44,583 bases of DNA from Candidatus Yanofskybacteria bacterium RIFCSPHIGHO2_01_FULL_41_21 (GTDB lineage: Bacteria > Patescibacteriota > Minisyncoccia > 2-02-FULL-40-12 > GWA2-44-9): the NCBI GenBank assembly GCA_001794025.1, contig MGJA01000010.1, positions 26,288-70,870 on the forward strand, written 5' to 3'. The notes under the pieces were generated by a model. The model did not search any database and was not told the DNA's origin. It saw only the letters and a list, made by a program, of their open reading frames with translations. Positions within the stretch are counted from its first letter, which is position 1, and each line of letters opens with the position of its first letter. Positions 3,746 to 9,982 of the stretch are shown piece by piece. A program made the position numbers and the translations under genes.

Positions 3746-6700
3746 TTACTTTTTAATTCCTAAGTAAATCTTTTTATCTGGTCCCAATAAGGATTCCTTA
3801 TACAGGTCGTAGTCGCCGTGTTTCTCTTTTTGTTCAAGCGATTTTAAAACCGTATCTTTTTTAATTTCTTCGGACCATTCGGTGATGGCGGAAATTATTT
3901 CTTTGTCTTCACTATACCAATCAACCATGACAGAATCATCCATCTGGTATTTGGCTTCTTTGCGCATATCTTGAATTTGACGCATCAGTTCTCGCGCATA
4001 ACCTTCGCGAGTTAATTCCGGCGTAAGTTCCCATTCAAAATCCATTTTCGGTAAACTCTCGTCAGGTTTTATGTATTTTATTTTTTTAACATTTAACTCT
4101 TCCCTTATTAAATCTTCCAGATTCCCAAATTCTTCGGTAGATTTAAATATAGAAAGAGGTTGACGAACCTTAATTTGTTTATCCTTTCTCAATTTAAGGC
4201 CAACGGCTATGGCTTCTCTCGCTAAATTCATCCTTAATTCTAATTTATCATCCACATATTTCCTATGAAATTTCGGCCAATCAGTTAAATGAACGGATTC
4301 GGGTTCATTCATTGAAAATTGTAAATTGGTAACTGATAATTGTCGATTGCTTTGCAATCGGTGGTACATATCTTCCGCCATAAAAGGTGTAAATGGAGCA
4401 AGGAGTTTAGATACTTCTATTAATACATTTCTCAATAATGGCAATGCTTCTTTTCGACGACGCGAACGGCGCAACCACCAATTAGATAAATCATCAGTTA
4501 AAAATTGATCAATGGCTCGGCCTGCCGAAGCGACATCATATTTATCCAAATTATCGGTCACGGAAGAAATTGTCCGATGTAGACGAGACATCAGCCATTT
4601 GTCTAATAAGGTAAAAGTCAAAAGCCCTAAGTCATAAGTATCAGAATTATTACTTTTTGCTTCTTCCTTTTTACTTTCTGCGTAGAGTTCATAAAAACGA
4701 ATACAGTTTTGAAGTGTGAAGAAAAAACCTTTCAATTTATCTTCAATCTCCCGAGGGATTACGGCTTTACTTTCCCCAGCCGCAACAGTGGACATAAAAT
4801 ACCAACGAATAACATCCGTACCGTATTTATCCATCAGTTCCATCACGGGCACAAAGTTACCTTTTGATTTAGACATTTTCTGGCCTTTCTCATCTAGGGT
4901 GTGTCCAAGAACTAAAACATTTTTATAAGGAGCACCCCGACCAAGCAAAGTTGAAATACCTAAAAGTGTCCAGAACCAACCACGGGTCTGGTCAACGGCT
5001 TCCACAATAAAATCGGCCGGAAATTGTTTTTTAAAAACATCTTTATTTTCAAACGGATAATGCCATTGAGCAAAGGGCATCGCGCCGGAATCAAACCAGA
5101 CATCAATGAGGTCGGGAATCTTTCTCATTTTTGACTTACACTTTGGACATTTAATGACGACGTCATCAATAAATGGCCGGTGTAAATCCAATTCGCCGTA
5201 TTCATTGCGCGGAATTTTGCGCCATTCCAGTTTACGAATTTCCGCAAGATTAGGAGCAAAATACGGGAAGACATCGGGATTTTTCAATTCGTCTCCGGAA
5301 TATCCATGAGCAATGGCCTGAAAGAAATACATCGGCTGACCATGAGTAACTATCAAAATTTTCTTGTTGCGGTGCTTTGATTCCATATCTTTCATAAAAT
5401 CAGTCACTCGTGTCCTTATTGATTCCGCGCTTTCGGTTCCTTCCGCATACTGCATGGTTCCGGTATCCGATTTACCCTCAAATTCAAGAAGGTATTCCTT
5501 CTCAACTAATCTTTCATCTGTTTCGACTTTATGGTGCAAAACCTGACCCGCTATTTCCGCGGTCTCCTTAGTTCTAAAAAATGGTGAGGCATAAATCGCA
5601 TCAATGCCATCTAGTTTTAAAAGTTCCAATGAACGCTCCACACCCTCTCGACCTTCATCTGTAAGGTGGTAGGTGTCTAAACTAAGTTGTGAATTGACAA
5701 TTGGTTTATCACTACTTTCATTACGAGTCGTCGCTCCATGACGCATTATGTAATAAGTATTTTTAGAACCGAGAGACAGTTTCTCCAGTTCTTTAATAGA
5801 GCCAATGGCGGTTTTGTGGTCACACTGACCGCACTCCCAAATTGGGAGTGGTGTCCCCCAATATCTTTCACGGGATAGTGTCCAGTCCCTTCCTTCTCGC
5901 AACCATCCGCCAAATCGTCCATCTTTAATATGTTCAGGAACCCAATTGACGGTTGCATTATTGGCGAGCAATTCTTTGTTAAGCGCAGATGTTCGTATAA
6001 ACCAAGACGTTTTGGCGTAATACAACAAAGGCGTATTACAACGCCAACAGAACGGATAGTCGTGCTCATAGTCCTCAATTTTTAAAAGTTGATTTCTTTC
6101 CTGAAGTTTTTCAAGAATTAAATCTTCAACGGCCTTGTTCTTTTTTCCGTTCTCAATAATAGCTTTTCCGCCGAGTCCGTCACCCAGAGAATCAATAAAC
6201 TTCCCCTGTTCGGTAACAGTATGAATTTTTGGTAAGTTTAATTTTGTACCAAGAATATAGTCATCTTCACCATACATCACCGCCGTATGAACCACGCCCG
6301 TTCCGTCTGTTGTAGAAACAAAATCTGCTGGATAGACCTTATATGATGTATCGGATTTCAGTTCCGGCACATCAAACAATGGTTCATATTCTAAACCAAC
6401 CAGTTCACTGCCTTTGTAGTTCTTGGCCATTAGCGAATAGCCATTAGCCGACCCAAATACTTTTTCCACCAAATCCTTCGCTAGGATTAATTTTTCTCCA
6501 TCAAGTTCAACGGTCGCGTAATCAATTTCGGGTCCCACCGCTAAAGCAACATTGCCCGGTAACGTCCACGGGGTAGTCGTCCATGCAAGAATATACACCG
6601 GCGAATTTCCAATTTCCAATTTCCAATTTCCAATTTTGGAATGCGGACCTATAACTTTAAATTTAAGGTAGACGGACCTCTCCGTCGTCAGTTTATATCC

Positions 6701-7288
6701 TTGAGAAACCTCATGGGCCGAAAGAGCTGTTCCGCATCGGACACAAAGAGGCACAATCTTGTGGGCCTGATAAAGCAAGTCCTTATCCCAAATCGTCTTA
6801 AGAATATTCCAGACCGATTCCATATATCCCGTTTCGTAGGTAACATACGGATGATCCAGATCCAGCCAAAAACCCATCCGCCGCGTCATGTCTTCCCATT
6901 CTTTGGTATACTTCCAAACACTTTGTCGGGCTTTGCGATTAAACTTAGCAATACCGTATTCTTCAATCTGTTTTTTATTACTAAAACCCAGTTCTTTTTC
7001 AATTTCAATTTCCACGGGTAAACCATGGGTATCCCAACCGGCTTTTCGGAGAACAAAAAAGCCCCGCATGGTTTTATAGCGTCCGTATAAGTCCTTCGGC
7101 AAACGAGTTAAAAAGTGACCGATATGGGGCTTGCCATTGGCGGTGGGCGGACCTTCCCAAAACACAAAACGCTTCCCCTCCCGGCGAAGCTCAAGTGATT
7201 TCTCAAAAATAGCATGATCGTCCCAAAATTTCCGGACCTTATCCTCCGTATTCTTGAAGTCGTACACCAGGTAGTAGAAATCCGACAT
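3746..7288 (-). CDS. ileS: Isoleucine--tRNA ligase (type 2-like) with an inserted histidine-phosphatase domain; true start may be GTG 7267
   Basis: EGPPTANGKPHIGH (HIGH), GWDTHGLP, WTTTPWTLPGN, SRERYWGTP, DVWFDSG, DQTRGWF, KMSKS; the insert carries YIMRHG. Confidence 0.95.
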   Translation of the reverse strand: MSDFYYLVYDFKNTEDKVRKFWDDHAIFEKSLELRREGKRFVFWEGPPTANGKPHIGHFLTRLPKDLYGRYKTMRGFFVLRKAGWDTHGLPVEIEIEKELGFSNKKQIEEYGIAKFNRKARQSVWKYTKEWEDMTRRMGFWLDLDHPYVTYETGYMESVWNILKTIWDKDLLYQAHKIVPLCVRCGTALSAHEVSQGYKLTTERSVYLKFKVIGPHSKIGNWKLEIGNSPVYILAWTTTPWTLPGNVALAVGPEIDYATVELDGEKLILAKDLVEKVFGSANGYSLMAKNYKGSELVGLEYEPLFDVPELKSDTSYKVYPADFVSTTDGTGVVHTAVMYGEDDYILGTKLNLPKIHTVTEQGKFIDSLGDGLGGKAIIENGKKNKAVEDLILEKLQERNQLLKIEDYEHDYPFCWRCNTPLLYYAKTSWFIRTSALNKELLANNATVNWVPEHIKDGRFGGWLREGRDWTLSRERYWGTPLPIWECGQCDHKTAIGSIKELEKLSLGSKNTYYIMRHGATTRNESSDKPIVNSQLSLDTYHLTDEGREGVERSLELLKLDGIDAIYASPFFRTKETAEIAGQVLHHKVETDERLVEKEYLLEFEGKSDTGTMQYAEGTESAESIRTRVTDFMKDMESKHRNKKILIVTHGQPMYFFQAIAHGYSGDELKNPDVFPYFAPNLAEIRKLEWRKIPRNEYGELDLHRPFIDDVVIKCPKCKSKMRKIPDLIDVWFDSGAMPFAQWHYPFENKDVFKKQFPADFIVEAVDQTRGWFWTLLGISTLLGRGAPYKNVLVLGHTLDEKGQKMSKSKGNFVPVMELMDKYGTDVIRWYFMSTVAAGESKAVIPREIEDKLKGFFFTLQNCIRFYELYAESKKEEAKSNNSDTYDLGLLTFTLLDKWLMSRLHRTISSVTDNLDKYDVASAGRAIDQFLTDDLSNWWLRRSRRRKEALPLLRNVLIEVSKLLAPFTPFMAEDMYHRLQSNRQLSVTNLQFSMNEPESVHLTDWPKFHRKYVDDKLELRMNLAREAIAVGLKLRKDKQIKVRQPLSIFKSTEEFGNLEDLIREELNVKKIKYIKPDESLPKMDFEWELTPELTREGYARELMRQIQDMRKEAKYQMDDSVMVDWYSEDKEIISAITEWSEEIKKDTVLKSLEQKEKHGDYDLYKESLLGPDKKIYLGIKK

Positions 7289-7674: not shown

Positions 7675-7795
7675 GACGCGGTATGACTCCGACAACGTGC
7701 CGTACCTGTACCTCAACGACGACGAACCGGCGCTGAACGCGAACTGGAACGACAATGCCAATCCGAAGTGGGGTGCCCCGTCCTTCGGTAGTGTC
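7675..7795 (+). repeat. DGR template repeat (TR) including IMH*
   Basis: Aligns without gaps over 121 nt to the reverse complement of 9350-9470; rich in AAC/GAC/TAC codons; mismatches fall at TR adenines. Confidence 0.97.
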
Positions 7796-7797
7796 CA

Positions 7798-7834
7798 TAA
7801 ACTTAAAAACGGCTTCATGCCGTTTTTAAGTTTA
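7798..7834. other. Perfect 16-bp hairpin directly 3' of the TR, with the avd stop codon in its loop
   Basis: TAAACTTAAAAACGGC-ttcat-GCCGTTTTTAAGTTTA. Confidence 0.8.
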
Positions 7835-8186
7835 GTGATTTCATCCAGCCACCAAGTTGTTTGCCAATATCTTGAATTTTAGATTCAAGAGAAAGATATT
7901 TTTTGTTATCAATTATCCTTAGTTCTCTAGCTGAACGTAGTAGAAACTTTAATACTTCAAATTTATTATTGGCGACAATAAGAATTGGCAATCTCTCATC
8001 TTTTGAAACCGCGACTGCCCCATAAATTTGCTCTATAAAATCCAACAAGTAATCTTCACAGCGTTTACCCAAAAGATACTGATCCTGTTTGGGGAACATT
8101 TTTAAGTAACCATAAAACTCTTTGTATAAATCGGCGGTCTTTTGGACTATTGGCGCTTCTTGGTCAATTTGCTGTATATTGTTCAT
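7815..8186 (-). CDS. avd: DGR accessory variability determinant Avd (four-helix bundle)
   Basis: 123 aa; FPKQDQYLLG, LKFLLR.A.EL and IGKQLGGWMK match the Avd/four-helix-bundle family; lies between TR and RT. Confidence 0.9.
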   Translation of the reverse strand: MNNIQQIDQEAPIVQKTADLYKEFYGYLKMFPKQDQYLLGKRCEDYLLDFIEQIYGAVAVSKDERLPILIVANNKFEVLKFLLRSARELRIIDNKKYLSLESKIQDIGKQLGGWMKSLNLKTA

Positions 8187-8189
8187 GTT

Positions 8190-9238
8190 ATGAAAATTAA
8201 TTTATTTGAAAAAACTATTTCCATGGAGAGCTTACTGGAAGCTTGGGATAAATTCAAGGCCGGCAAGAGACGAAGAACCGACGTTCAAATATTTGAGAAA
8301 AGGCTTGAAGATAACCTTTTTAAACTACACGGGGAACTCAGTAGTAAAACTTACCGTCATGGTCCGTACGAAAAATTCTATATTCGCGATCCAAAAGTTC
8401 GGCTCATACACAAGTCCAGTGTCAGAGATCGAGTTGTTGACCATACTATTTTCAAAACCCTAAACGAAATCTTTGAACCCACATTTATTAACGAATCTTA
8501 CTCGTCCAGAATTGGTAAAGGCACCCATCGAGGTATTAAAAGTTTAAAAGAATATCTTATAGAGACACAAAAAGTGTATGGCAAATGTTTTGTCTTAAAA
8601 TGTGACGTTAAAAAGTTTTTCCATTCAATCAATCACAATATTTTAATTTATATCATTCAAAGAAAAGTTACCGATCTAAACATGATCTGGCTCATCAAAC
8701 TACTACTGAAAAGCTTCCCGATTCGGGCGCAATTCGAGAGAGAGAGAGAGAGAGTAAAGCGTGCCCTATCGGTAATTTAACCTCTCAACTATTTGCTAAC
8801 ATATATTTGAACGAGCTTGATCAATACATAAAAAGAGAATTGCATGTAAAAAATTACATCCGTTACACTGATGATTTTATTGTCGTCCACCATAACAGAG
8901 AGTTTCTAGCTCAATTCATAACAACTATCAGAGTTTTTCTTCACGTAGAGCTAGGGCTGAAATTACACCCGAACAAAGTTGGCATCCGTAAGTATCGCCA
9001 AGGCATAGACTTTTTGGGCTATGTCGCTCTGCCTCGGGCCACGGTTTTACGGACAAAAACTAAAAATCGAATCCTGCGAAAAATCAAAGAAAGATTACTG
9101 CAGTTAAAAGAAGGCAAAATTACAGAAGAAAAATTTATGCAAACACTAAATTCTTATTTGGGAGTTTTAAGTCATGCCAACAGCCACAAATTACGATCAG
9201 AGATTATGGATTATATTTGGAAAAATTTGAATGAGTGA
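8190..9238 (+). CDS. DGR reverse transcriptase, frameshifted in the (GA)9G tract at 8736-8754 (348 aa if one GA unit is lost)
   Basis: First frame: DPKVRLIH..VRDRVV, SYSSRIGKGTH, LKCDVKKFFHSINH. Second frame: PIGNLTSQLFANIYLNELD, YIRYTDDF, GIDFLGY, SYLGVLSHANS. Confidence 0.92.
8736..8754 (+). repeat. (GA)9G dinucleotide tract at the RT frameshift
   Basis: ttc-GAGAGAGAGAGAGAGAGAG-taaagcg. Confidence 0.95.
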
Positions 9239-9256
9239 GTTTATTAAAATTAAATG

Positions 9257-9284
9257 CCCCCGAGTGCGCACGCGCACTCGGGGG
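9257..9284. terminator. GC-rich 12-bp hairpin between convergent RT and target; terminator and/or DGR homing stem-loop
   Basis: CCCCCGAGTGCG-cacg-CGCACTCGGGGG, about 65 nt 3' of the VR, followed by a T-rich run on the minus strand. Confidence 0.65.
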
Positions 9285-9337
9285 ATAAAACCTCAACCCC
9301 CAACCATCAACAACCAATCAGGTCAAAAGGTCAAGGA

Positions 9338-9982
9338 TCAACCTTCAATGACACTCCCGAAGGACGGGGCACCCCACCCCGGAAAGGCACCGTCGCTCCA
9401 GTCCGCGAGCAGCGCCGGCTCGCCGCCGCCGAGGCACAGGCACGGCACGCCGCCGGAGACAAACCGCGACCGGACGAGATCCATATAGTGGTGGTTCAGC
9501 ACCTCGCTGAACACCATCAAGTGGATGTACCCCGCCCACAACCCGTAGCCGAACCGACCTGCCGACTCGATATTGGACTGCGCGACTGACGGCTTGGTGT
9601 TGAGACGCTGACGCCCATCTTCGACGCCGACGAGCATCCGCGGAACGGTGACGAGCGGGTCGAGGTCGCTCAGCGCCGAGACGGTCAAGAAGTTCTGTCC
9701 CATCTTGCCATTGAGCTGAATCCTGGCCATGTACTCGTTCCAGTCCATCTCACTGACCGGCCGCGGCTGGGGCGGCACGAGCAGGAACGGCGTGCCATCG
9801 GCGGGAAGCCGGTCGGCGAACCGGTCGAACATGTCGGCTGTCGCCAGTTTGGCGTCAGCGAGACGTGCCCGCGAGATTTCGAAAACCTCGACGGGTGTCA
9901 GCTGACGAAGTGGCGGAGCGAACAGCGCGCCGATGTCGTCAGACGAGAAGGCCTTGCGGGTTGTCGCGGTCTGCGTGGTCAT
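9338..9982 (-). CDS. DGR target (variable) protein, 214 aa, with a C-terminal VR; fold possibly CLec-like
   Basis: The C-terminus SRFVSGGVPCLCLGGGEPALLADWSDGAFPGWGAPSFGSV is the mutagenised copy of TR-encoded TRYDSDNVPYLYLNDDEPALNANWNDNANPKWGAPSFGSV; SD-like AAAGGTG upstream. Confidence 0.92.
   Translation of the reverse strand: MTTQTATTRKAFSSDDIGALFAPPLRQLTPVEVFEISRARLADAKLATADMFDRFADRLPADGTPFLLVPPQPRPVSEMDWNEYMARIQLNGKMGQNFLTVSALSDLDPLVTVPRMLVGVEDGRQRLNTKPSVAQSNIESAGRFGYGLWAGYIHLMVFSEVLNHHYMDLVRSRFVSGGVPCLCLGGGEPALLADWSDGAFPGWGAPSFGSVIEG
9350..9470 (-). repeat. DGR variable repeat (VR) including IMH
   Basis: 23 mismatches at TR adenines (16 A>G, 6 A>T, 1 A>C) plus one T>G in the 3' conserved block. 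Confidence 0.97.

Follow-up and report, generated by a model that had tools for sequence, protein, structure and literature searches.

A GA dinucleotide tract as a candidate slipped-strand switch on DGR hypermutation in a Candidatus Yanofskybacteria genome

The stretch of DNA analysed in this study (44,583 nt of contig MGJA01000010.1 of Candidatus Yanofskybacteria bacterium RIFCSPHIGHO2_01_FULL_41_21, hereafter the window) carries a complete DGR, composed of a template repeat (TR), the divergent genes for the accessory protein Avd and the reverse transcriptase (RT), and, convergent with the RT, a target gene that contains the variable repeat (VR). The RT gene is interrupted within a (GA)9G microsatellite, and this tract is probably a slipped-strand contingency switch on DGR hypermutation. 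The components of the cassette are:

7677..7795, + strand: template repeat (TR), a 119-nt inverted repeat with 9350-9468, match 81%
7805..7827, no strand assigned: hairpin AAAAACGGC-TTCAT-GCCGTTTTT, read directly from the sequence, between the TR and the 3' end of avd
7815..8186, - strand: avd, accessory gene, 123 aa (Pfam bAvd PF22296, E 3.1e-19)
8190..8780, + strand: N-terminal half of the RT, 196 aa including an out-of-frame tail (RVT_1 positions 8-107, E 1.1e-8)
8736..8754, + strand: (GA)9G microsatellite, site of the frame break and proposed switch
8753..9238, + strand: C-terminal half of the RT in the -1/+2 frame (SKACPIGNLTSQ ... YTDD ... stop; RVT_1 positions 115-203, E 3.1e-11)
9257..9284, - strand: GC-rich hairpin of 12 bp, a terminator-like site between the convergent RT and target genes
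9338..9982, - strand: DGR target gene, an ORF of 214 aa with the VR in its C-terminus
9350..9468, - strand: variable repeat (VR), the 119-nt partner of the TR, inside the target ORF 9338-9982

The TR and the VR, the latter placed at the 3' end of the target gene, differ by 23 mismatches over 119 nt, of which 22 fall on adenines of the TR (27 A in total) and the remaining one is T>G. This almost exclusive location at TR adenines supports the view, put forward in an earlier note on this DNA, that the highly mutated VR is a sign of past RT activity. The avd product scores 69.9 bits against PF22296 (cut-off 40), and the start codons of the divergent avd and RT genes are separated by 3 nt. Both parts of the split RT gene match RVT_1, the domain being divided by the break. 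The N-terminal half contains the RT motifs as far as KCDVKKFF, ends with a TAA at 8778-8780 and yields a product identical to the database protein P0123, and the C-terminal half holds YTDD and PIGNLTSQ (motif 4 of the DGR clade, I/LGxxxSQ), its 161 aa matching the corresponding part of P0129, an intact allele, without a difference. The G+C content of the target gene (~64%) is well above that of its surroundings (~38%); its protein matches DUF5701 weakly (E 1.2e-5, under the cut-off) and its homologues vary most at residues 174-202. A single VR sequence is on record for the species, from 5 contig records among which the 1 substitution lies elsewhere than in the VR. In contigs of runs X1 and X3 a TR-like sequence, which may be a VR variant, is joined to the VR flank (7794 to 9324). 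In the hairpin at 9257..9284, which the terminator scan placed 54 nt beyond the target stop, 10 of the 12 pairs are G-C; we take it to be a possible DGR target-recognition hairpin or cruciform. The other hairpin (7805..7827), which the same scan did not call and whose loop shows small indels at 7815-7818 in contigs of runs X1-X3, may also have some role.

The earlier note had located the break of the RT frame in (GA)9G at 8736-8754, and this was confirmed, as the two RT halves sit in different frames on either side of the tract (caattc-GAGAGAGAGAGAGAGAGAG-taaagcgtgccc). The upstream frame, opened by the ATG at 8190, terminates with QFERERERVKRALSVI and a stop at 8780, and the motifs are read in another frame (...RERERESKACPIGNLTSQ...YTDD...) to 9238, in line with the earlier description. 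It also proved correct that the loss of one GA, or the gain of two, gives a single ORF (182 + 5 + 161 = 348 aa, or 350 aa; offset -1/+2) and that neither half has another lesion, both being free of further stops. The repeat is perfect and lies within the reading frame, with 9 units giving the OFF and 8 or 11 units the ON state. It encodes the loop immediately before RT motif 4 (PIGNLTSQ), and since a GA repeat reads as (Glu-Arg)n in each of its three frames, the gain or loss of units alters only the frame of the downstream part, with the catalytic YTDD included. No ATG, GTG or TTG is present in the frame of the C-terminal half upstream of 8807, and therefore motif 4 cannot come from an internal start; a split RT assembled from two polypeptides is ruled out, because the first start in that frame (8807) lies downstream of the motif. 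Within the window all matches to a 12-nt GA pattern fall inside the tract (0 expected, 100 shuffles), and no other dinucleotide repeat of at least 5 units exists anywhere in the 704,475-bp genome.

Nineteen sequencing runs were listed by the run search, all as assembled Logan contigs and not as reads, of which 4 were aligned to the window; positions 8729-8763 are masked in these alignments, so that tract length within a sample is invisible. The truncated protein of the 9-unit allele occurs in 3 + 10 + 2 contig records, possibly overlapping (P0123, P0124 and P0127), and a 198-nt contig of run X4, which comes from a different study, covers 8606-8803 with 0 differences and 0 gaps. The 9-unit allele is thus reproducible and, as the majority allele, appears stable, though the samples may not be independent. 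The predicted allele with two additional GA units was found as P0129 (339 aa, linker ERERERE), which matches both halves of the window exactly, and an out-of-frame allele of 12 units is represented by P0002 and P0130. One cluster at 90% identity therefore contains ERERER-VK... (9 units), ERERERE-SK... (11 units, intact, 339 aa) and ERERERER-VK... (12 units), the lengths of 11 and 12 units being inferred from protein sequence and each backed by only 1 or 2 contigs. Tract length thus differs among near-identical genes, with both ON and OFF alleles present. A further pair of related loci, L011 and L026, shares 96% DNA identity and has tracts of 24 and 18 nt; in another lineage four records (L033, L034, L035 and L135) have the same 17-nt in-frame tract. 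Summed depth rises in bin 8734-8814, and contigs of runs X1-X3 end close to the tract; both were considered as signs of allelic bubbles and set aside, as strain variants fit them equally and bins without a repeat are raised too.

Comparison of tract length in orthologous RTs, which the earlier note had called for, revealed variable lengths and all three frame states among the relatives. A search with the N-terminal half, which is unbiased as to frame, gave 80 metagenome loci, of which 22 have at the homologous site a (GA)n tract that is 13-39 nt long; the full-length query added a further 80 loci, 7 of them with a (GA)n tract between the end of the N-terminal half and motif 4. Pooled, homologous tracts of 10-39 nt are present in 29 of 160 related loci. 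Among the 20 tract-bearing loci with both halves, 6 are in frame, 9 are shifted by 1 and 5 by 2, whereas the frame is kept in every one of the 129 relatives that have both halves but no tract (out of frame 14/20 vs 0/129; Fisher p = 2e-15, uncorrected for kinship). Counting distinct loci and including the window, the frame states are distributed as 4 : 9 : 6 (chi-square p = 0.37), an even spread that is unlike the single fixed shift of programmed frameshifting. Both halves are open in 13 of the 14 OFF loci (the exception being L011). Values of dN/dS for the N- and C-terminal halves, respectively, are 0.083 and 0.057 for the window vs L001, 0.073 and 0.085 for L008 (OFF) vs L033 (ON), and 0.27 and 0.26 for L011 vs L026 (both OFF). 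Purifying selection acts on the C-terminal half, downstream of the break, as strongly as on the N-terminal half (dN/dS 0.06-0.26), and in OFF alleles the gene is kept without decay. A simple pseudogene, for which the earlier note had expected relatives fixed at one broken length and decaying, does not match these three frames, open halves and selected C-terminal parts.

The 120 database proteins listed span 106-340 aa. Those under 300 aa number 109, and in 94 of them an (ER)n tract is present and motif 4 is missing. At E 6e-54 or better, about 16 full-length proteins (hand count) have the (ER)n tract in frame, against the 94 truncated ones; as a measure of the ON fraction this ratio was rejected as unreliable, since gene calling, clustering and length windows confound it, and 30 of the 94 truncated proteins end exactly at the tract and may reflect contig ends.

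On the RT tree the tract is patchy, with at least 11 changes needed, at least 4 of which are forced by well-supported branches (mean of shuffled labels 25), which indicates repeated gain or loss at one loop. In the 18 linkers of tract-less sister genes inspected, no tract relics were found, only an ordinary short linker. Compared with the solved RT of the Bordetella phage (8ub7), the tract-coded segment of P0129 is an insertion, and residues 168-185 of the P0129 model have pLDDT below 50; both observations indicate that the loop with the tract tolerates changes of length. Searches for MutS_V and MutL domains found none in this genome (completeness score 96.9%), with controls positive in 11 of 14 genomes. 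Simple sequence repeats (SSRs) are scarce in it: it has 1 dinucleotide repeat of at least 5 units and 4 G/C runs of at least 8, and of these 5 repeats 3 are located in or at DGR RT genes. Each of the three DGR-type RTs of the genome bears a repeat, the two besides the RT described here having a poly-G run at their 5' end. Such a 5' run is present in 31 of 106 GA-less relatives but in none of the 25 with GA (p = 0.001, without correction for kinship), and 56 of the 131 distinct relatives sampled have either a mid-gene GA tract or a 5' poly-G run.

The three frame states, the intact halves, the selection on the C-terminal half and the alleles of 11 and 12 units support the phase-variable switch on DGR mutagenesis proposed earlier. 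With 9 units the RT of this genome would be OFF, its product being a 196-aa fragment without motifs 4 to 7. Slipped-strand mispairing at replication, apparently without mismatch repair, would alter the number of GA units; lengths of 8 or 11 would give the full RT of 348 or 350 aa and diversification of the VR, and cells in the other two frames would retain the current VR. A population could in this way hedge between exploring new receptor variants and locking in the present ones. For this, switching should be frequent and reversible within a lineage, the OFF state should truly halt mutagenesis and the arrangement of the tract is presumably under selection as such.

One alternative is that this lineage simply has an RT pseudogene, or that the count of 9 units is an assembly or sequencing error. 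The gene is indeed broken in the assembly, repeats are error-prone in PCR-based libraries and the contigs of runs X1 to X3 break near the tract, but the same 9-unit allele recurs in numerous contig records and a contig from a different study has it too, neither half has a second lesion, dN/dS of the C-terminal half is 0.057 against the nearest relative, and avd, TR, VR and target gene are intact, so that we regard a dead gene or artefact as very unlikely. It is somewhat less improbable, if still unlikely, that the GA tract is a tolerated mutational hazard, recurring in a permissive (Glu-Arg)n loop and frameshifting without mismatch repair, with the broken alleles recent, mildly deleterious and either reverting or purged, and with no adaptive switch. 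The disorder of the loop and its being an insertion relative to the Bordetella phage RT agree with this, as do the lack of detected MutS and MutL, the many gains or losses on the tree and the ordinary short linkers, with no GA relic, of tract-less sister genes. Against it stand the near absence of SSRs elsewhere in the genome (3 of 5 in or at DGR RT genes), the length of the tracts (up to 39 nt) and their persistence over lineages ~50% diverged in protein sequence, and a second SSR type, the 5' poly-G run, which marks other RT clades and never accompanies the GA tract (31/106 vs 0/25); moreover, the consensus alleles are mostly OFF (14/20), which is hard to square with simple purging. The present data nevertheless fit both a selected switch and a tolerated hazard, and do not separate them.

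Rescue at the RNA level, in which the tract is a recoding site where polymerase stutter or a ribosome slip of +2 / -4 nt throttles RT dosage and does not switch it off, was judged about as improbable as the hazard. Three DNA frames of similar frequency among relatives with intact halves would be expected if frame matters little; a 2-nt shift on a GA repeat gives an identical codon, with GAG and AGA re-pairing perfectly two bases away, and strong hairpins directly follow the tract in some relatives (z below -2 in 6 of 26 3' flanks, e.g. L003, L039 and L079). On the other hand, there is no X XXY YYZ slippery heptamer at the tract, and the RNA of the window is little structured (z = +0.23 for the 106-nt tract region; the 5' flank folds weakly, z -0.93, and the 3' flank is unstructured, z -0.02). 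The shift needed varies among relatives (9 one way, 5 the other), unlike in known programmed frameshifts; bacterial transcriptional slippage is established at long A/T homopolymers and is not known from dinucleotide repeats; and true DNA-length alleles, one of them in frame, make switching at the DNA level sufficient. Classical -1 programmed frameshifting was rejected, since relatives need different shifts (6 are in frame, 9 and 5 are not), and there is neither a slippery motif or long A/T run nor significant or conserved structure. A universal hairpin-tract-hairpin cassette was discarded as well: it fits some relatives (L039; the 5' side in the L033 family; the 3' side in L003 and L079), but not the window, and is not general, z being below -2 in 2 of 26 5' flanks and in 6 of 26 3' flanks. 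There is also a slim chance that the tract acts as a dinucleotide recoding signal on top of DNA switching, its length setting RT dosage like a rheostat and forming, with the 5' poly-G runs, a general layer of hypermutation control in CPR bacteria; ribosome hops of +2 / -4 or polymerase stutter would then yield a small, tunable share of full-length RT from any DNA frame.

The regulation of DGR activity is largely unknown, and continuous mutagenesis of a working receptor is costly. If the slipped-strand model is true, a repeat that gates the RT is a switch on a mutator, by which most cells keep a proven variant and a stochastic minority explores. The clade-wide pattern (56 of 131 relatives, and all three RTs here) suggests a general control principle in ultra-small bacteria without mismatch repair and with few regulators, and metagenome surveys may count as 'broken' many DGR RTs that belong to live elements and are thrown out by annotation pipelines. 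A full-text literature search, covering main texts, found nothing linking DGRs to repeat-tract switching; supplementary tables of the DGR surveys might list frameshifted RTs. In the excerpted text of Wu et al. 2018 (PMC5758913), frameshifts are mentioned only for TR/VR indels, and the text of Roux et al. 2021 (PMC8144416) has no mention of the subject under the terms sought.

The best solved relative of the machine described here is the DGR of Bordetella phage BPP-1 (bRT-Avd; P0129 vs bRT chain 8ub7_A, E 2.8e-37). Both systems have Avd, a TR/VR pair with adenine-specific changes and the IGxLTSQ motif, but bRT lacks an insertion at the position of the (ER)n tract. To our knowledge, no repeat-based control of bRT has been described. 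Inactivated DGR RTs beside intact TR/VR, from which very recent inactivation or sequencing error was inferred, were reported by Schillinger et al. 2012 (PMC3521204). These resemble the window in the frameshifted RT next to a TR/VR with adenine mutations only; however, as far as the excerpted text goes, they are single cases (a nonsense mutation, an IS insertion and a frameshift) with no repeat tract or recurrence mentioned, whereas here the break lies at a conserved microsatellite.

The closest parallel to the tract itself is the (AG)12 phase-variation tract in a Type III methyltransferase gene of Mycoplasma mycoides subsp. capri, as outlined in excerpts of PMC3498834. In both cases a perfect AG/GA coding repeat sets the frame, an out-of-frame length stops at a nearby TAA and an enzyme, not a surface protein, is switched. 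Here, however, the enzyme belongs to a hypermutation cassette, being its RT; the tract is conserved at a single loop in many environmental lineages that have diverged deeply, and switching is proposed from sequence. Simple-sequence contingency loci of host-adapted bacteria (Haemophilus, Neisseria, Campylobacter and Helicobacter; passages in PMC3315296, PMC11868660 and PMC2715451) share with the proposed switch slipped-strand length changes that lead to stochastic, heritable and reversible ON/OFF states and bet-hedging. Such loci number in the dozens in those bacteria, and most of them lie in genes for surface structures or restriction-modification, whereas the genome of this free-living or episymbiotic CPR bacterium all but lacks SSRs outside its three DGR RTs. 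Hypermutable repeats, reversible frameshifts and bet-hedging outside classical pathogens have also been described, in the abstract of a preprint, for contingency loci of phages T2 and T4 (bioRxiv 10.1101/2025.10.21.683753), although those repeats lie in different genes, unlinked to any retroelement. Finally, phasevarions, i.e. phase-variable Mod methyltransferases (excerpts of PMC5909438 and PMC7383803), offer the same two-tier arrangement, in which an SSR toggles an enzyme that alters many phenotypes; their downstream effect is reversible methylation, whereas the one proposed here would be permanent diversification of the target gene.

The reverse transcriptase (RT) gene of the diversity-generating retroelement (DGR) carries at window positions 8736-8754 a GA tract, which reads caattc-(GA)9G-taaagcgtgccc. 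The RT frame, opening with the ATG at 8190, crosses this tract and terminates at 8778-8780 (…QFERERERVKRALSVI, then stop), and the frame offset by -1/+2 (…RERERESKACPIGNLTSQ…YTDD…) is open to 9238. The Pfam RVT_1 profile is split cleanly, with positions 8-107 matched before the tract (N half) and 115-203 after it (C half), and no further stop codon is present in either RT half of the window. The tract is the sole occurrence of the 12-nt GA pattern in the window (0 expected from shuffles), and a whole-genome scan revealed that it is the only dinucleotide repeat of at least 5 units in the 704,475-bp genome. Reading of the sequence and of both frames confirmed the tract and frame break described in the earlier note, and the lengths of the halves bear out its calculation that the loss of one unit gives a 348-aa product. 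The truncated N-half protein recurs exactly in 3 + 10 + 2 contig records (from several sources, possibly overlapping). Sequencing runs were compared as assembled contigs, with window positions 8729-8763 masked in the contig alignment; a 198-nt contig of run X4 (a different study), corresponding to 8606-8803, showed 0 differences and 0 gaps relative to the window.

The RT is part of a complete DGR, with the following components:

7677-7795: template repeat (TR), 119 nt, inverted pair with the variable repeat
7815-8186, minus strand: bAvd gene (69.9 bits), divergent from the RT gene, start codons 3 nt apart
9338-9982, minus strand: target gene (214 aa), convergent with the RT gene
9350-9468: variable repeat (VR), 119 nt, inverted pair with the TR

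TR and VR differ by 23 mismatches, 22 of which fall at TR adenines, and a 12-bp GC hairpin separates the RT and target genes. The target gene has approximately 64% G+C over its whole length, also beyond the VR (surroundings about 38%, genome 41%), and it is not a chimera, since contigs of other samples bridge the AT-rich RT gene into this G+C-rich gene. G+C-rich islands (600-nt; 0.54-0.67) were also observed in many related loci, including L113, L090, L129, L074, L019 and L124, where they precede the RT by about 0.6-2 kb (RT start at 2501 in those loci). Another hairpin (7805-7827) separates the TR from the 3' end of avd, and its loop (7815-7818) contains small indels that distinguish the contigs of runs X1-X3. 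In contigs of runs X1 and X3, window position 7794 is joined to 9324 on opposite strands, the RT-target spacer leading into sequence closer to the TR than to the window VR (shorter side of the X3 joint, 118 nt); this joint may mean that those samples carry a different VR variant, or that an inversion has taken place between TR and VR, which are inverted relative to each other. Elsewhere in the window, a gene (3746-7288, minus strand) encodes an isoleucyl-tRNA synthetase-like protein of 1180 aa, in which the class I catalytic domain is split into two stretches by an inserted histidine phosphatase domain (His_Phos_1, E 4.6e-22, residues 513-673).

A search of 5.8 billion proteins with the N half gave 488 matches. 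Among the 120 matches listed, 109 were shorter than 300 aa, and 94 of these 109 lacked motif 4 and had an (ER)n run beyond residue 140; wherever the source is named for the matches listed, it belongs to the Patescibacteria/CPR lineages. Both halves were then mapped by tblastn at 160 loci, and the tract and frame offset were scored. These comprised 80 metagenome loci fetched with the N-half query, which favours no frame, and 80 species-representative genome loci fetched with P0129 (an intact 339-aa allele of the window RT), which favours in-frame genes.

Tract and frame state at the related loci
Metagenome loci: tract in 22/80 (13-39 nt); in frame 6 (4 distinct); shift 1, 9; shift 2, 5; cut by contig end, 2
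Genome loci: tract in 7/80 (10-33 nt); in frame 7; shift 1, 0; shift 2, 0; cut by contig end, 0

Each of the 129 tract-less loci in which both halves were present was in frame, and therefore frame breaks are limited to tract-bearing genes (out of frame: 14/20 tract-bearing vs 0/129 tract-less loci; Fisher p = 2e-15, uncorrected for kinship). Of the 14 out-of-frame loci, 13 have both halves open as far as the tract; the exception, L011, has a further lesion. No GA relic was found in the 18 linkers of tract-less sister genes inspected, which have an ordinary 10-15-residue linker instead. A FastTree phylogeny built from 142 distinct N halves required a minimum of 11 changes in tract presence, of which at least 4 are forced by well-supported branches (shuffled labels: mean 25); the tract is thus clustered, yet repeatedly gained or lost at the same loop. 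Compared with the solved structure of the Bordetella phage RT (8ub7, E 2.8e-37), the tract encodes extra residues inserted directly before motif 4. In the AlphaFold2 model of P0129 (mean pLDDT 75.7), pLDDT drops below 50 over residues 168-185, which lack secondary structure; a flexible loop of this kind accounts for the tolerance of (Glu-Arg)n runs that vary in length.

In the pairs compared, dN/dS of the C half was as low as that of the N half: 0.057 and 0.083, respectively, for the out-of-frame window vs in-frame L001 (79% aa identity), 0.085 and 0.073 for out-of-frame L008 vs in-frame L033, and 0.26 and 0.27 for L011 vs L026, both out of frame; in more distant pairs synonymous sites were saturated. 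Judged by these substitution patterns, the split RT genes are not decaying pseudogenes.

The 90%-identity cluster of the window RT has 11 members, several of which match the window allele (…QFERERER-VKRALSVI). Two database proteins, P0002 and P0130 (…QFERERERER-VKRALSEI), correspond to 12 units, out of frame, as counted from the protein. Intact P0129 (…QFERERERE-SKACPIGNLTSQ…), with flanks identical to both window halves, implies 11 units when counted in the same way, which is exactly the allele with two added units predicted in the earlier note. L011 and L026 share 96% DNA identity and have tracts of 24 and 18 nt. Two observations count against very fast switching: in another lineage, four records have one 17-nt in-frame tract in common, and the 9-unit allele is found again in different samples. 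Taken together, the phase-variable switch proposed in that note is supported, and the RT tract is probably a slipped-strand contingency switch. A GA repeat encodes Glu-Arg in every frame, so a change in unit number alters the downstream frame alone, and the product of the out-of-frame state lacks motifs 4 to 7. A two-piece enzyme is unlikely, as the second frame offers no start codon ahead of motif 4. MutS_V and MutL domains were not found in the genome, scored 96.9% complete (a control search found them in 11/14 reference genomes), and repeat instability should therefore rise.

Besides the split RT, the genome encodes two further DGR-type RTs, three in all. Both are intact, each forms a head-to-head pair with a bAvd gene, and in each a poly-G run in a common CCGT-Gn context separates the start of avd from the conserved RT body:

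Contig C7 of the source genome (G000:C7:57915-57925; L163 2496-2506), RT strand: G11, the longest homopolymer of the genome
Contig C11 (G000:C11:22073-22080; L164 1442-1449), RT strand: G8 as recorded, with 7 N directly after it, so that its true length may differ

G/C runs of at least 8 number four in the whole genome. The run of RT#2 follows the sole upstream GTG start and precedes a possible GTG start downstream. In the set of 131 distinct related loci whose upstream sequence is long enough, G7 to G14 was found upstream (-17 to -82 nt from the RT match start, in loci within L012-L156) in 31/106 GA-less vs 0/25 GA-bearing RTs (Fisher p = 0.001, uncorrected for kinship; background 14 SSR hits in 367 kb), and thus 56/131 RTs have one or other repeat. 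The GA tract and the poly-G run seem to exclude each other and to follow RT clades.

The distinct loci, window included, are spread roughly evenly over the three frames (4 : 9 : 6, p = 0.37), and the window has neither a slippery heptamer nor a significant fold (z = +0.23), which argues against a classical one-direction programmed frameshift. In favour of slippage at the RNA level across the GA tract, a 2-nt shift gives back an identical codon and strong 3' hairpins occur in 6/26 relatives, but this explanation is unlikely. In some relatives a hairpin (e.g. GATTCGC…GCGAATC) ends exactly at the tract start (L008, L013, L033, L039, L040 and L124), and in some a G+C hairpin begins directly after the tract (L003, L039, L079, L124, L064 and L082), overlapping the PIGN codons in L003. 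Such tract-flanking hairpins are not universal, and the window has only a weak predicted 5' fold (z -0.93). We give a similarly low probability to a non-adaptive origin, in which the tract is a tolerated hazard, because SSRs are nearly absent elsewhere in the genome, tracts of up to 39 nt persist and a second, apparently mutually exclusive, repeat type exists.

Contingency loci in general are well established. The switching of an enzyme gene by an intragenic AG/GA repeat is also established, e.g. in a Mycoplasma Type III methyltransferase (PMC3498834). Single frameshifted DGR RTs beside pristine TR/VR pairs are described by Schillinger et al. 2012 (PMC3521204), who attributed them to an inactivation that happened recently or to errors in sequencing. 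In full-text literature searches, no link of DGRs to repeat-tract switching was found. The probable mechanism, a slipped-strand contingency switch, is known, and its place seems to be new: the engine of a targeted hypermutation system, conserved across CPR lineages.
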